DNA from: an uncultured virus (IMG/VR IMGVR_UViG_3300047375_000936)
Lineage: Duplodnaviria; Heunggongvirae; Uroviricota; Caudoviricetes
Virus record (IMG/VR): IMGVR_UViG_3300047375_000936
Reading direction: 5' to 3' (one strand)
Length of the DNA: 64,000 nucleotides
Shown here: positions 32,589 through 36,024 of the stretch, in pieces
How positions within the stretch are numbered: position 1 is the first letter of the stretch
Layout: each line of letters starts with the position of its first letter
The notes under the pieces: model-generated
Database searches by the model: none
What the model saw: only the letters and a program-made list of their open reading frames with translations
What the model was told of the DNA's origin: nothing
Program-made: the position numbers and the translations under genes

Positions 32589-34363
32589 TAAAAATTAAAG
32601 ACTTAACAGTAAAGAACTTCATGAGTGTGGGTAATGTTACCCAAGCAGTTGACTTTGACGAAGAGCAACTAACCCTTGTGTTAGGCGAGAACTTGGATCA
32701 AGGCGGTGACGATACTGGATCACGCAATGGCACTGGTAAAACCACTATCATTAATGCACTATCCTATGCATTATATGGACAGGCTCTTACAAATATCAAA
32801 CGCAACAACCTTATTAACAAAACTAACTCAAAAGGTATGCTTGTTACTCTTAACTTTGAGAAAGCTGGAAATCAATATCGTATTGAACGTGGTAGATCGC
32901 CAAACATACTCAAGTTTTATGTCAACGAAAACGAACAAATTGATGAATTAGCTGATAACAGCCAAGGCGATAGTCGTAAAACACAGGAATCAATTAAAGA
33001 CCTGCTAGACATGAGTCACGATATGTTTAAACATATTGTTGCGCTCAATACCTACACCGAACCTTTCCTTAGTATGCGGACAAATGACCAAAGAGCTATT
33101 ATTGAACAGCTTCTTGGTATTACGATACTAAGTGAAAAGGCATCATTACTCAAAGACTCGGTCAGACTTACTAAAGATACCATTACCGAAGAAACTTTAA
33201 AGATTGAAGCTATACAAAAAGCAAACGAAGGTATCCAAAGTACTATTACTAACCTTGAAAAAACACAAAGAGCCTGGAAAGCCAAGCAACGTACCGATAT
33301 TGACAAGCTAACAAGTGCAATTGAACAACTTGAAAAGTTAGATATCGATAAAGAATTAGATTCACACGACAAATTAGCAAACTGGACCAAGCATAACAAT
33401 GCTATTTCGTCACTAAAGAAAGAATTAGCTACATTAGAACCTGCATTGGTACGTGCTGATAAGAGTGTTAGCAAATTAAACAAGGATATTGTTGAATTAA
33501 AGGATGCAACGTGCTATACTTGCGGACAAGAGCTTCATGCAGACAAAAAAGCTGAAATTGAGTCAAAGAAAGCAAAAGAACTTGAAGATGCAATAGCGTA
33601 TCAAAAAGAAATTACTCGAAAAGTAACAGATGTTACTGTTGAACTAGATACAATTGGTGATATTAACGGTAAGCCTACTACATTCTACGAAGCTGCTAAA
33701 GAAGCATACGAACATAGAAACAACGTAGATAACTTAAAGCAAACACTGCTAAGTAAAGAGCAAGAGGCAGACCCATATCAGGCACAAATTAACGATTTAA
33801 CAAACACAGCACTACAAGATATCAACTGGTCAACAGTTAACGAACTTACTAATGTAAAAGAACACCAAGACTTCTTGCTAAAGCTATTAACCAACAAAGA
33901 TAGCTTCATTAGAAAGAAAATTATTGATCAGAACCTAGCATATCTTAACAATAGGCTAACATATTACTTAGATAAACTTGGTTTACCACATCAAGTGGTA
34001 TTCTTAAACGACTTAGCAGTTGAAATTACACAGCTAGGACAAGATCTTGACTTTGATAACCTGTCACGTGGCGAACGTAATAGGTTAATTCTTGGTCTTT
34101 CGTTTGCATTCCGTGATGTTTGGGAGAGTTTGTATCAAAGTATTAACTTACTGTTCATTGATGAGCTTATTGATAGCGGAATGGACACAGCAGGCGTAGA
34201 AAACAGTATAGGCGTACTTAAAAAGATGACTAGAGAGCGTAATAAGAATATTTTCCTTATCTCACATAAGGATGAACTAGTTGGCAGGGTCAACAATGTT
34301 CTAAGAGTGGTAAAGGAAAATGGGTTCACTAGTTATGCAACAGACATTGACATTGTAGAATGA
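32585..34363 (+). CDS. gp46: Recombination ATPase subunit (Rad50/SbcC-like), T4 gp46
   Basis: Walker A NGTGKTT, zinc hook CYTCGQ, signature LSRGE, Walker B LFIDE, H-loop ISH and coiled coils. Confidence 0.95.
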   Translation: MIKIKDLTVKNFMSVGNVTQAVDFDEEQLTLVLGENLDQGGDDTGSRNGTGKTTIINALSYALYGQALTNIKRNNLINKTNSKGMLVTLNFEKAGNQYRIERGRSPNILKFYVNENEQIDELADNSQGDSRKTQESIKDLLDMSHDMFKHIVALNTYTEPFLSMRTNDQRAIIEQLLGITILSEKASLLKDSVRLTKDTITEETLKIEAIQKANEGIQSTITNLEKTQRAWKAKQRTDIDKLTSAIEQLEKLDIDKELDSHDKLANWTKHNNAISSLKKELATLEPALVRADKSVSKLNKDIVELKDATCYTCGQELHADKKAEIESKKAKELEDAIAYQKEITRKVTDVTVELDTIGDINGKPTTFYEAAKEAYEHRNNVDNLKQTLLSKEQEADPYQAQINDLTNTALQDINWSTVNELTNVKEHQDFLLKLLTNKDSFIRKKIIDQNLAYLNNRLTYYLDKLGLPHQVVFLNDLAVEITQLGQDLDFDNLSRGERNRLILGLSFAFRDVWESLYQSINLLFIDELIDSGMDTAGVENSIGVLKKMTRERNKNIFLISHKDELVGRVNNVLRVVKENGFTSYATDIDIVE

Positions 34364-34605
34364 GCGAATTAGACACACATGACAAAATAGTGTTAGCAGT
34401 ACTTGAATATTTTGAACTAAACGAAATATTCAACCACAGGCCTGCAGAACTAAAGCGTAGGAAGGTACGTAAAAAGCTATCTGCACTACGTGATTTATGT
34501 ACTGTAAGACGAGAAGAAATACTACAAGAGCATGTTAGGCATGTAAAAGACGGCAGAGCAAAAAATAATCCAAAAAAGGCACGTGAGGCACTGAAGAAGA
34601 AGTAA
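34360..34605 (+). CDS. Hypothetical basic helical protein (81 aa)
   Basis: Translationally coupled to gp46 (ATGA overlap). No recognised motif. Confidence 0.6.
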   Translation: MSELDTHDKIVLAVLEYFELNEIFNHRPAELKRRKVRKKLSALRDLCTVRREEILQEHVRHVKDGRAKNNPKKAREALKKK

Positions 34606-34612
34606 CTACAGT

Positions 34613-35062
34613 ATGAATTGGACATACAAAGGTGAAGAAATAACTGAAATACCAGATGAGTACGAAGGATTTGTTTATCTTATTACCAATTTAACTAACA
34701 ATCAAAAATACATAGGCAAAAAACTAGCAAAGTTTAAAACTACCAAGCCACCACTTAAAGGCAAAAAGAATAAACGTAGAGGCTACAAAGAAAGTGACTG
34801 GAAAACCTATTGGGGATCCAGTGATAGGCTTAATGCAGACGTAGCCGCACTAGGCGAAGACAAGTTTACAAGAGAAATACTATACCTATGTAAAGGTAGG
34901 GGCGAAATGTCCTACATAGAGGCACGAGAGCAGTTTGACAGGCGAGTACTTGAAACAGATGATTACTACAACGGTATCATTAATGTTAGAGTGGGCGGAT
35001 CAGACAAACTAAAACAGGCATTGCTAGAACATCACATACAGGCAAAACATTCCAACACATAA
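34613..35062 (+). CDS. Stand-alone GIY-YIG (Seg-like) endonuclease, 149 aa
   Basis: GFVYLITNLTNNQKYIGKK, YWGSS, the conserved Glu helix (SYIEAREQF) and YYN. There is a K/R-rich insertion and no C-terminal NUMOD/HTH domain. Confidence 0.85.
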   Translation: MNWTYKGEEITEIPDEYEGFVYLITNLTNNQKYIGKKLAKFKTTKPPLKGKKNKRRGYKESDWKTYWGSSDRLNADVAALGEDKFTREILYLCKGRGEMSYIEAREQFDRRVLETDDYYNGIINVRVGGSDKLKQALLEHHIQAKHSNT

Positions 35063-35432
35063 GGTTGGCGGGCCAGAATAAAAATACCGCTGTGGAAAAA
35101 GCTCTCGTATAGAAGCACACGTACATATTGATTGACACACCAGAGTGTGGAAGCCACCAAACAAATTGGGCTCACTAGTTGATATAGATTGCATGTTGGC
35201 AGTCAAAAAACACAAACACAGTACATAAAAACTCTTTAGCAATAGGAACGAAGCAAGAGGTAGCGTAAGCGATGTCGACGTAGGTTGGGAAAGGTCAGAG
35301 CCCATTGTACTTTGTGTATAAACAATTACCTACTTCCAAGTTCTCGGCTGGATAAGACTCACATGAAGTTTTTTTTGAGAAAGATGGGACCGTAACAGGT
35401 TCCGTCTGACTGAAACGATCTACATGAAACTT
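35063..35432 (+). ncRNA. Candidate large structured non-coding RNA (class not recognised)
   Basis: No credible ORF. Many local and crossing long-range complementary segments were found by eye (see findings). Expression and strand are unverified. Confidence 0.55.
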
Positions 35433-35435
35433 AAA

Positions 35436-35526
35436 CATATCACTTACGTGATATGCTATTATAAATATTATAAATAATAAAAATGTGTAGAGCGATAGCG
35501 ATACACAGATGAACGTTAGTTCATCT
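35436..35526. repeat. Cluster of three inverted repeats around an AT-rich tract with tandem TATAAATA
   Basis: CATATCAC-ttac-GTGATATG (35436-35455), TATAAATA at 35460 and 35469, TGTGTA-gagcgatagcga-TACACA (35484-35507) and AGATGAAC-gtta-GTTCATCT (35507-35526). Confidence 0.85.
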
Positions 35527-35532
35527 TGATAA

Positions 35533-36024
35533 TTGAAAGTTATTATGTCATCACCTTTGCTAAGAGCTCTTGTTAAAAAATCAAATGATCTACATAGTTG
35601 TTGGAAAACTGGAAACAGTGGACAGTGTCAAAAGTGTGAGCGTAATCAAGATAATAGTGATGGTTATCAGTTAACAGACTTTGACCATGAAGACTTAAAA
35701 CTACTTGAAGAGATGATTGTAGATTATGAATATAATCAAATATCTCACCCAAAAAAAGTTACTGCTATCTACAACGGAGAATTTACACTTCCGGTTGGAG
35801 CAAAATCGTCTGATACAACTCGACAACCAAGAATTGTTTGGGTGCTAGATCGAACTATTGGTAATGCAATTATATCTGGCAAAGTTATACAGGCAGCAAA
35901 CACTTTAGGATGGGCAAGCACTTGTGAATCAAAAGATGATAAAATATTAATTGGTCTTGGATTTCGCGATAGAGGCGGTTCAGAAGCCTATGACGAAGCA
36001 TTTGTCAAACAGATATACAAGTAA
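35533..36024 (+). CDS. Hypothetical protein (about 160 aa)
   Basis: ORF fills the gap. The start is uncertain (TTG 35533 or ATG 35545). There is an N-terminal C-x8-CxxC cluster but no recognised family. Confidence 0.55.
   Translation: MKVIMSSPLLRALVKKSNDLHSCWKTGNSGQCQKCERNQDNSDGYQLTDFDHEDLKLLEEMIVDYEYNQISHPKKVTAIYNGEFTLPVGAKSSDTTRQPRIVWVLDRTIGNAIISGKVIQAANTLGWASTCESKDDKILIGLGFRDRGGSEAYDEAFVKQIYK

Follow-up and report, generated by a model that had tools for sequence, protein, structure and literature searches.

What is encoded in the long gene-free stretch that follows a small nuclease gene in IMG/VR record IMGVR_UViG_3300047375_000936, and does it belong to that nuclease? The DNA in question, 64,000 nucleotides (nt) from an uncultured virus of the Caudoviricetes, was analysed over its whole length and is referred to below as the window. 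A stand-alone GIY-YIG nuclease gene of the SegE type, 149 amino acids (aa) long, occupies 34613..35062 on the plus strand, and between its stop codon and the next start codon (ATG at 35545) there is no conserved open reading frame (ORF). Comparative analysis shows that this stretch encodes a plus-strand, heavily folded RNA of ~400-450 nt. Its non-coding body lies at 35063-35435, and with its leader and terminator hairpin the RNA would span about 35000 to 35455. A first-pass annotation, made from the letters of the window, had proposed an undescribed large RNA at this place that begins at the nuclease stop codon and either partners the nuclease or primes replication. The large RNA itself stands, with strong covariation, no match to an Rfam family, and no description found in the literature; its start and its proposed partnership fared differently, as set out below.

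Comparative evidence for a plus-strand RNA

Relatives of the nuclease number at least 599 in IMG/VR, and the best 80 were retrieved for comparison; the locus set around the nuclease comprises 81 loci, including a window-identical copy (L002). A 28-base core pattern of the RNA, hereafter class 1, returned at least 120 further stretches, from which 90 distinct sequences were drawn for alignment A1. A structure model of 96 proposed pairs was tested on A1 against two controls, in which the 3' partners were slid by 1-3 columns or the alignment was shuffled 500 times. The proposed partners pair in 93.7% of cells, as opposed to 33.5-39.3% with partners slid. Covariation among relatives, which the first-pass annotation had named as one check on its proposal, is present at 45 pairs with double-sided changes in 629 cells (71-98 cells in the slid controls), and 0 of the 500 shuffles attain the observed percentage of paired cells, the number of double-change pairs or cells, or the covariation score. 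For additional pair types, the number seen does not rise above the shuffles (330/500).

Folding energy is uninformative for this RNA: its minimum free energy has z = -0.70 (plus strand) and z = +1.68 (minus strand). The energy alone is not unusual, and the call of a structure rests on comparative covariation. G-U is the most frequent pair at 8 positions of A1, which assigns the fold to the plus strand, the strand that the G-U pairs and a GNRA loop of the single sequence had led the first-pass annotation to favour. An RNA from the minus strand or a structure at the DNA level was rejected, since only the plus strand accommodates the G-U pairs and the z of the minus-strand fold is positive.

The stretch is also the longest non-coding gap of the window, which agrees with the earlier claim; a crude ORF cover leaves three gaps of at least 150 nt, one with a 63-aa ORF and another with a 47-aa ORF. 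Of the window's three candidate ORFs located here, two survive intact in 1 of the 90 relatives each and the third in 2, and small ORFs were discarded as genes. Variability by position modulo 3 is flat in the stretch (0.143/0.139/0.144) and 0.143/0.079/0.215 in the tail of the nuclease ORF. Among relatives, the 370-470 nt that lie 3' of the nuclease are 74-91% identical, compared with 72-77% for the 3' end of gp46. Identity of the RNA to the window ranges from 70 to 100%, with a median of 82%, and synonymous divergence (dS) in the adjoining ORF is 0.95; by this measure the RNA changes several-fold more slowly than the synonymous sites next to it. The stretch was also considered as a decayed C-terminal domain of the nuclease. 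This was rejected, as the ORF keeps its length of 149 aa in 79 of 81 loci and the downstream sequence is non-coding with compensatory changes.

Fold, ends, and classes of the RNA

The alignment supports a fold of at least 13 helices (H) with two covariation-backed pseudoknots (PK), a conserved unpaired core, and peripheral stems that can be replaced. H1, H2, the outer part of H3, H4, H5, H6, the inner part of H7, H8, H10, and H11 are well supported; outer H7 (76.5% paired), H12 (85.3%), and inner H3 (78.7%) are weak. All of these elements lie on the plus strand, and base-pair switches are given below with the number of sequences that carry them.

PK1 (35052..35199), a pairing absent from the first-pass annotation, joins CCAACA at 35052-57 to UGUUGG at 35194-99 in the loop of H6. 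All six pairs form in 90 of 90 sequences and three of them covary, through switches of CG to AU (9) or GC (3), CG to UA (12), and AU to GC (9). The 5' strand of PK1 coincides with Ser-Asn-Thr codons of the nuclease, and because this strand lies in the last codons, the RNA begins within the nuclease gene rather than at its stop codon, with a conserved leader from ~35000-35015.

Behind the stop codon come H1 (35067-71/35087-91; 99.1% paired, GC to AU in 3), H2 (35092-94/35118-20; UA to AU in 15), and the H3 hairpin (35101-06/35112-16), whose outer pairs switch from GC to CG (10) and CG to UA (22). H4 (35125-33/35177-85) is 99.2% paired, and at four of its pairs 22-31 sequences show double changes; it encloses the H5 hairpin (35136-49; alleles CACAC/GUGUG, CUACC/GGUAG, and CUCCC/GGGAG) together with H5b (35152-55/35169-72). 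This H4-H5 domain (35125..35185) is peripheral and replaceable, and about one-third of the relatives have a single hairpin in place of 35133-35178. The H6 hairpin (35187-91/35200-04), from whose loop PK1 is formed, is 98.7% paired, and four of its five pairs show double changes.

A long-range helix, H7 (inner strands 35221-25/35306-10, outer strands 35216-19/35314-17), closes around the conserved core. Its inner five pairs form in 100% of the sequences, with switches of GC to AU (21), UA to CG (19), and AU to UA (30), and read UGCUA/UAGCA in L205 and L207. H10 (35280-85/35328-33; 99.1% paired; UA to GC in 5, GC to AU in 1, GC to GU in 13) crosses H7, and the two together constitute the pseudoknot PK2. 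Both helices had been predicted from the single sequence, as ACACA-GTACA with TGTAC..TGTGT and as GTAGGT with ACCTAC, and both hold along with their mutual crossing. So do four of the local hairpins predicted with them (TGGCGG/CCGCTG, CACAC/GTGTG, CTCTT/AAGAG, and GATGGGACC/GGTTCCGTC), which show compensatory changes.

Inside the core, H8 (35232-36/35255-59 and 35239-40/35253-54; 97.4% paired; UA to CG in 30, CG to GC in 15) presents a 12-nt loop, AAUAGGAACGAA, whose bases are invariant or nearly so. H9 (35263..35270; A1 columns 301-451) reads GC-GUAA-GC here and in relatives ranges from a GNRA-capped stem of 2 bp to inserts of ~110 nt, with GUAA, GCAA, GAAA, or UGGAAAC as loops. Of two further hairpins in the first-pass annotation, this one is consequently a variable stem with 0 to ~110 nt inserted, and the other, UGGG/CCCA (35286-89/35301-04) with its loop AAAGGUCAGAG, is invariant. 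Between them lies an unpaired, near-invariant segment, GAUGUCGAC (35271..35279), with invariant columns in alignments A1 and A2, which includes the palindrome GUCGAC. The palindrome (35275-35280) is found in 89 of 90 sequences, the remaining one having GUCGGC, and could allow RNA-RNA dimerisation.

The candidate third pseudoknot pairs GUCA with UGAC (35294-97/35407-10; 99.7% compatible) and draws no support from covariation because both strands are invariant; GGTCAGA/TCTGACT, the pairing originally proposed for these strands, is 99.8% compatible and likewise invariant in A1. Toward the 3' end, H12 (35342-47/35375-80; CG to UA in 13, one pair unpaired in 40) contains a conserved loop segment, GACUCACAUGAAG (35356-68). 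The H11 hairpin, GAUGGGACC/GGUUCCGUC (35383..35406; 99.3% paired, closing pair CG to UA in 7), folds by itself with -13.7 kcal/mol (z = -4.15), and is followed by a conserved single-stranded tail, AAACGAUCUACAUGAA (35413..35428), in which AUCUACAU is invariant in A1. Three other pairings of the first-pass annotation, TGGAA/TTCCA, TAGATTG/CGATCTA, and TGGGCTC/GAGCCCA, fail upon one-sided changes, the changed bases being compensated in other helices.

In 24 of the 81 related loci (among L004-L082, and with the window-identical L002 included), the contig ends no more than 450 nt past the nuclease stop; the observation concerns window 35190-35262. Nine of these contigs stop 136-146 nt after the nuclease, just ahead of the point where two alleles of H7 diverge. 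We read such ends as branching of the assembly graph between co-occurring strains rather than as a genome end.

The leader covers the last ~20 codons of the nuclease together with the 5' strand of PK1 (35000..35062). Its block AGGCAAAACAWUCCAACAC.UAAGG persists where the upstream sequence is unrelated, and dS is 0.50 in codons 126-149 as against 0.95 in codons 1-125. AGGCA occurs twice in the leader (35016-20 and 35040-44) at a spacing of 24 nt, and two or more AGGC[AU] motifs are found in 76 of 90 leaders (expected 0.12). The motif is repeated two to four times, mostly 24 nt apart, and persists where a leader is non-coding or shows no relation in sequence; the repeats could be protein-binding sites or repeats that matter at the DNA level. 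Between the nuclease stop and the RNA, four relatives (L064, L249, L114, and L231) carry a near-consensus promoter of the sigma-70 type, TTGACA-17-TATACT or TATAAT. From the promoters of L114, L231, and L249, which lie 65-76 nt 5' of the RNA body, and from L064, we place the start of the leader at ~35000. The window has a sigma-70-like TTGACA-17-GATGAT (10/12) at 34935-34963, inside the nuclease ORF and ~40-90 nt 5' of the leader, and transcription of the RNA might be initiated separately from this match in the present genome. At the opposite end, a terminal hairpin, CAUAUCAC-UUAC-GUGAUAUG (35436..35455, plus strand; -8.5 kcal/mol, z = -4.32), varies in its stem letters among relatives with self-complementarity kept, and is likely the 3' end of the RNA or its terminator.

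Some gp46 relatives have a different conserved non-coding stretch of ~400 nt in the same slot behind the nuclease, which we term class 2. A pattern taken from one such stretch collected 59 loci on viral contigs (including L262:5355-5790, L263, L271, L277:5500-5900, and L281-L339). R1, a model of the class 1 core, detects nothing at the class 2 loci, and class 2 is likewise unmatched in Rfam. For 33 distinct class 2 sequences, RNAalifold gives a structure of 91 pairs, which are 96.8% paired and include 19 with double changes, a count biased in favour of the predicted fold. Common to both classes are the AGGC leader, ACGAAGC.AGAG.UAG, the UGGG...CCCA hairpin, and a CAAUCU..AU.A tail, and the RNAs of L205-L207 are mosaics with a class-2-like 5' part and a class 1 core. 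In two contigs, a PDDEXK_15 gene (PF24608, E 3.6e-26) replaces the GIY-YIG gene 5' of the class 2 RNA. This gene has 173 aa and comes with a 116-aa ORF (L277:4979-5497, the same contig as L287, and L328); the 3' end of its ORF likewise reads ...UCCAAC UAA, and it was not found in G001 or G003.

At gathering scores, Rfam 15 gave 0 matches across the 64-kb window, GOLLD, ROOL, OLE, and HEARO included, so that no described family, a match to which would have removed the novelty claimed in the first-pass annotation, corresponds to the RNA. With E up to 10, the sole match in the window was the terminal hairpin (33 nt), which reaches 26.5 bits for Acido-Lenti-1, a family whose gathering score is 37, and with E up to 1 nothing was found in L205, L262, L271, and L277. 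The td and nrdB introns of T4 were recovered in the same mode (E 9.2e-8 and 2.3e-6), so a usual phage group I intron would have been detected. No small-ribozyme family of Rfam matched the window, and ARAGORN found 0 tRNA or tmRNA genes in it. Neither RNA class matched any of 50,697 phage records by blastn, and the 28-base core of class 1 has no match in one genome each of 185,579 prokaryote species. R1 found nothing in the entire genome of phage Melnitz. A weak match of R1 in the cyanophage S-SRM01 (L341, 56719-56829; 24.4 bits, E 0.02), inside an intergenic gap of 118 nt, is probably due to chance.

The literature searched, including portions of PMC10690425, whose alignment supplements lay outside the search, and of PMC7029224, contains no description of this RNA. 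PMC10690425 reports 8,495 candidate phage RNAs of 29-151 nt, among which short pieces of the present RNA may occur. The family is so far confined to uncultured marine phages with gp46/gp47-type recombination genes, and it is an undescribed RNA family of a general kind already known, the large ornate phage RNAs. GOLLD, ROOL, and OLE are bacterial and phage-associated RNAs of this kind. Like them, the present RNA is large, multi-helix, pseudoknotted, strongly conserved, phage-borne, found through comparative analysis, and of no known function; unlike them, it is unmatched in Rfam and smaller (~400-450 nt), shares sequence with the 3'-terminal codons of a protein gene, and in every case follows a nuclease gene instead of lying close to tRNAs. 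GOLLD and ROOL have been the subject of a cryo-electron microscopy (cryo-EM) paper (10.1101/2024.12.08.627333). The present RNA is abundant in ocean viral metagenomes, with at least 120 class 1 core stretches, 59 class 2 loci, and at least 599 nuclease relatives, and its alignment and fold suffice to begin synthesis, probing, and cryo-EM without a cultured phage.

Association with the nuclease and possible roles of the RNA

Upstream of the RNA, 129 of 129 assessable loci carry a nuclease gene. Class 1 accounts for 74 of these, all with GIY-YIG, and class 2 for 55, of which 53 have GIY-YIG and 2 PDDEXK (127 and 2 overall); the 6 class 1 loci without a nuclease match have less than 260 nt upstream, and 4 class 2 loci are too short to assess. 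Whichever gene is upstream, the RNA starts in its last codons. The nuclease consists of the catalytic domain and a 26-aa tail with no C-terminal DNA-binding domain, and is under strong purifying selection, its median ratio of nonsynonymous to synonymous divergence (dN/dS) being 0.106 over 299 pairs. Its mean distance, 0.142 versus 0.240 for gp46, makes it the better conserved of the two, and the GIY-YIG gene is present in 75 of 78 gp46 relatives.

Tentatively, we favour an autonomous non-coding RNA gene (~35000 to 35455, plus strand) that is linked to a nuclease slot and is not a guide RNA. The RNA would form the 3'-terminal part of the transcript of gp46 and the nuclease and end at the terminal hairpin; in at least four relatives it would also be made from its own sigma-70-type promoter. 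As PK1 and H1 fall within the footprint of a terminating ribosome, the active fold would be reached only on copies that are free of ribosomes or separately made, as with RNAs derived from 3' untranslated regions (UTRs). Such bacterial small RNAs (types I and II) resemble the present RNA in overlapping the end of an ORF and in arising by read-through or from an internal or own promoter; the present RNA differs in being several times larger and far more structured, and has no known seed region or target. The molecule would work as RNA itself, either ribozyme-like or as a protein-binding scaffold, and not as a guide. To our knowledge, large intricate RNAs with strong covariation are rare, and nearly all classes that have been studied are ribozymes, riboswitches, or RNA-protein machines.

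The upstream slot would hold a SegE-type GIY-YIG gene, or rarely a PDDEXK gene, as a homing-type or accessory gene beside a conserved RNA gene, lodged in the manner of free-standing homing endonucleases beside conserved targets. The free-standing SegA-G nucleases of T4 offer a close likeness, in that they share the catalytic domain family (PF19835, of which SegE is the namesake) and a position between conserved genes in a phage with T4-type recombination, and homologues of the present nuclease occur at other sites in other phages. Unlike SegA-G, the present nuclease has 149 aa and no DNA-binding domain, is near-universal (75/78), and evolves under strong purifying selection.

Contigs from four metatranscriptome runs in four studies bridge the ORF and the RNA (34934-35362, 34686-35201, 34865-35175, and 35002-35191). 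They were selected with this stretch, and their depth and the uncovered part 3' of 35362 carry no meaning; they attest only that the locus is represented in RNA libraries and runs on from the ORF into the RNA, and DNA carry-over is possible.

Several points weigh against an autonomous RNA beside a lodged nuclease. The RNA-library data are contigs, without transcript ends, strand, or level, and the biochemical role given to the RNA is pure conjecture. A selfish homing gene should be patchy, yet the nuclease is near-universal in the gp46 relatives and none of the 129 assessable RNA loci is without a nuclease gene, so that neither the patchy spread nor the nuclease-less alleles with an intact target typical of homing endonucleases were seen in these sets. 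The low dN/dS and a conservation above that of gp46 fit a useful enzyme better than a parasite, and a homing-type nuclease here has no known cleavage site. The RNA class also follows the nuclease tree, with 4 changes on a quick tree compared with 32 in shuffles.

These points bear directly on a second explanation, that nuclease and RNA are functional partners in one system, the RNA serving as scaffold, targeting cofactor, or inhibitor/immunity factor. We regard such a partnership as possible but doubtful; it stays the main rival because the linkage is complete and a nuclease devoid of a DNA-binding domain is strongly conserved. It would explain why another nuclease fold, PDDEXK, rather than nothing is found where GIY-YIG is missing, and why the RNA class tracks the nuclease tree. 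On the other side, the class does switch on that tree, starred branches forcing at least two such changes, and a shared mechanism would require the RNA to be bound by two unrelated folds.

The nuclease family also lives elsewhere without the RNA. A tblastn search found it in 809 phage records; the closest cultured homologue, in Melnitz (73.5% aa identity), has another genomic context and a 150-nt downstream spacer without the RNA, and the S-SRM01 homologue has 88 nt downstream, again without it. The first-pass annotation had held that finding RNA and nuclease unlinked in other genomes would refute a partnership; nuclease without RNA was found, and RNA without nuclease was not, in 129 loci. An extra ORF of 87-104 aa separates the two in L090, L094, L097, L107, L130, and L139, so intervening sequence, like the separate promoter of four relatives, is tolerated. 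Distances of gp46 and nuclease correlate moderately (Mantel r = 0.33, 0 of 999 permutations), and in 3 of 16 pairs with near-identical nucleases gp46 is more than 20% apart, which implies some exchange.

An RNA-guided nuclease would call for a variable guide at one end of its RNA, complementary to the target. No guide-like or hypervariable segment is present in A1, where the RNA ends are conserved or self-paired hairpins and the variable 3' segment is always a hairpin. Complementarity to the rest of the 64-kb window does not rise above chance: matches of at least 12 nt form 8 clusters, and shuffles (n = 30) average 4.0 and reach up to 10. Partnership as scaffold or guide, the role first put forward for this RNA, is unsupported in view of the family's occurrence without the RNA, the PDDEXK swap, the intervening ORF or promoter, and the missing guide segment.

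The start of the RNA inside the ORF recalls the RNA-guided OMEGA systems (IscB with HEARO/omega RNA, TnpB with omega RNA), in which a large structured RNA likewise adjoins a small nuclease gene; the omega RNA of TnpB, too, has its start within the 3'-terminal part of the ORF. The present locus differs in having GIY-YIG or PDDEXK instead of RuvC/HNH, in showing no guide segment, transposon ends, or Rfam match to HEARO, and in a nuclease family that is found elsewhere without RNA. An RNA-dependent DNA nuclease without relation to CRISPR or OMEGA and maintained in an abundant group of marine phages, in which a GIY-YIG enzyme reduced to its catalytic domain (or, interchangeably, a PDDEXK enzyme) would be recruited, aimed, or restrained by a ~400-nt pseudoknotted RNA that arises from the 3' end of its own gene, is in our estimate decidedly unlikely. 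The unbroken association with nucleases of two unrelated folds provides a concrete, testable hypothesis, and the outcome is useful either way, as an autonomous phage RNA with a new activity or as a new RNA-nuclease partnership.

Three further explanations are less likely than either an autonomous RNA or a partnership. Of these, a cis-acting 3' UTR, which would shield the nuclease/gp46 mRNA from 3' exonucleases or couple termination to the fate of the mRNA and have no role in trans, is unlikely rather than implausible. It would suit the position at the 3' end of the operon ahead of the terminal hairpin, the overlap of PK1 with the last codons, and the RNA-library contigs that span ORF and RNA. 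However, an RNA of ~400 nt that contains two pseudoknots and extended unpaired segments free of variation goes far beyond what a stabiliser needs, four relatives have a separate promoter 3' of the ORF stop, and the RNA is retained behind differing upstream genes.

We consider it very unlikely that the transcript works on the DNA it comes from, for instance as an origin or primer RNA like ColE1 RNA II, with the hairpins downstream as assembly sites; nothing in the data speaks for the replication-primer role named in the first-pass annotation. Recombination and replication genes do adjoin the locus, conserved hairpins and boxes lie 3' of the RNA, and the 24-nt-spaced AGGCA repeats could equally be DNA sites. 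Against this, GC- and AT-skew run unaltered through the locus, its neighbours include no helicase, primase, or initiator gene, and the covariation indicates pairing within RNA, not hybrid formation.

A degenerate or atypical self-splicing or self-cleaving ribozyme, such as a group I-like remnant travelling with a GIY-YIG homing endonuclease, is the most improbable of all: phage group I introns do host GIY-YIG genes beside a pseudoknotted RNA with variable, modular peripheral stems (T4 td/I-TevI), and the crossing of H7 and H10 resembles their P3/P7 order, but the covariance-model test failed (Intron_gpI, RF00028, is unmatched in the window with E up to 10 and in four relatives with E up to 1, in the mode that found the T4 introns), small-ribozyme families are unmatched, flanking exons are absent, with the nuclease ORF ending at a conserved stop and the downstream genes varying among relatives, and the helix order is another, for in group I introns P8 lies between P3' and P7' of the P3-P7 pseudoknot, where this RNA has 10 unpaired bases between the 3' strands of H7 and H10 (35318-35327) and, from the 5' strand of H10 to the 3' strand of H7, a hairpin where J7/3 is expected.

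Nuclease gene, neighbouring genes, and flanking elements

Residues 3-123 of the nuclease match the SegE_GIY-YIG profile PF19835 over profile positions 1-123 (E 1.7e-35, 122.3 bits, cut-off 25), and the protein also matches PHROG 447 (E 9.5e-39). Its translation contains the motifs GFVY (residues 19-22) and YIG (33-35). The first-pass annotation had described a minimal nuclease with a K/R-rich insert and no DNA-recognition domain. The lack of such a domain is confirmed; the K/R-rich stretch is nothing special to this protein but a family trait, because it falls within the Pfam profile match. T4 endonuclease II (DenA) was tried as a relative and rejected (BLASTP E = 14).

Gp47-like and gp46-like recombination genes lie 5' of the nuclease, followed by a basic 81-aa ORF (34360-34605) between gp46 and the nuclease that has no match in Pfam or PHROG. 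A similar small ORF of 60-88 aa is found at that spot in relatives as well, diverged beyond the reach of blastn.

Outside the RNA, the plus-strand region 35460..35544 holds two TATAAATA boxes (35460-67 and 35469-76), a conserved GUGUAGAGCG.UAGCGAUAC, and a hairpin at 35507-26. The region folds with -19.6 kcal/mol (z = -5.15) and is conserved with varying stems in relatives. We take TATAAATA to be the T4 late-promoter consensus. The pair of these boxes, a box of the GUUUGAGCG.UAGCGAAAAC type, and a variable hairpin make up a module that stands before differing downstream genes in relatives. This module resembles the promoter-stem-loop (PeSL) modules of T4-like phages (PMC4122927).

The closest cultured homologues of gp46 (window 33200-34360) come from the jumbo phages Phosso and PA5oct (43-45% aa identity) and not from pelagimyophages, and one related contig, G001, measures 170 kb at an estimated completeness of 48%. 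On account of these homologues and the size of this contig, the source of the window may be a marine jumbo phage.

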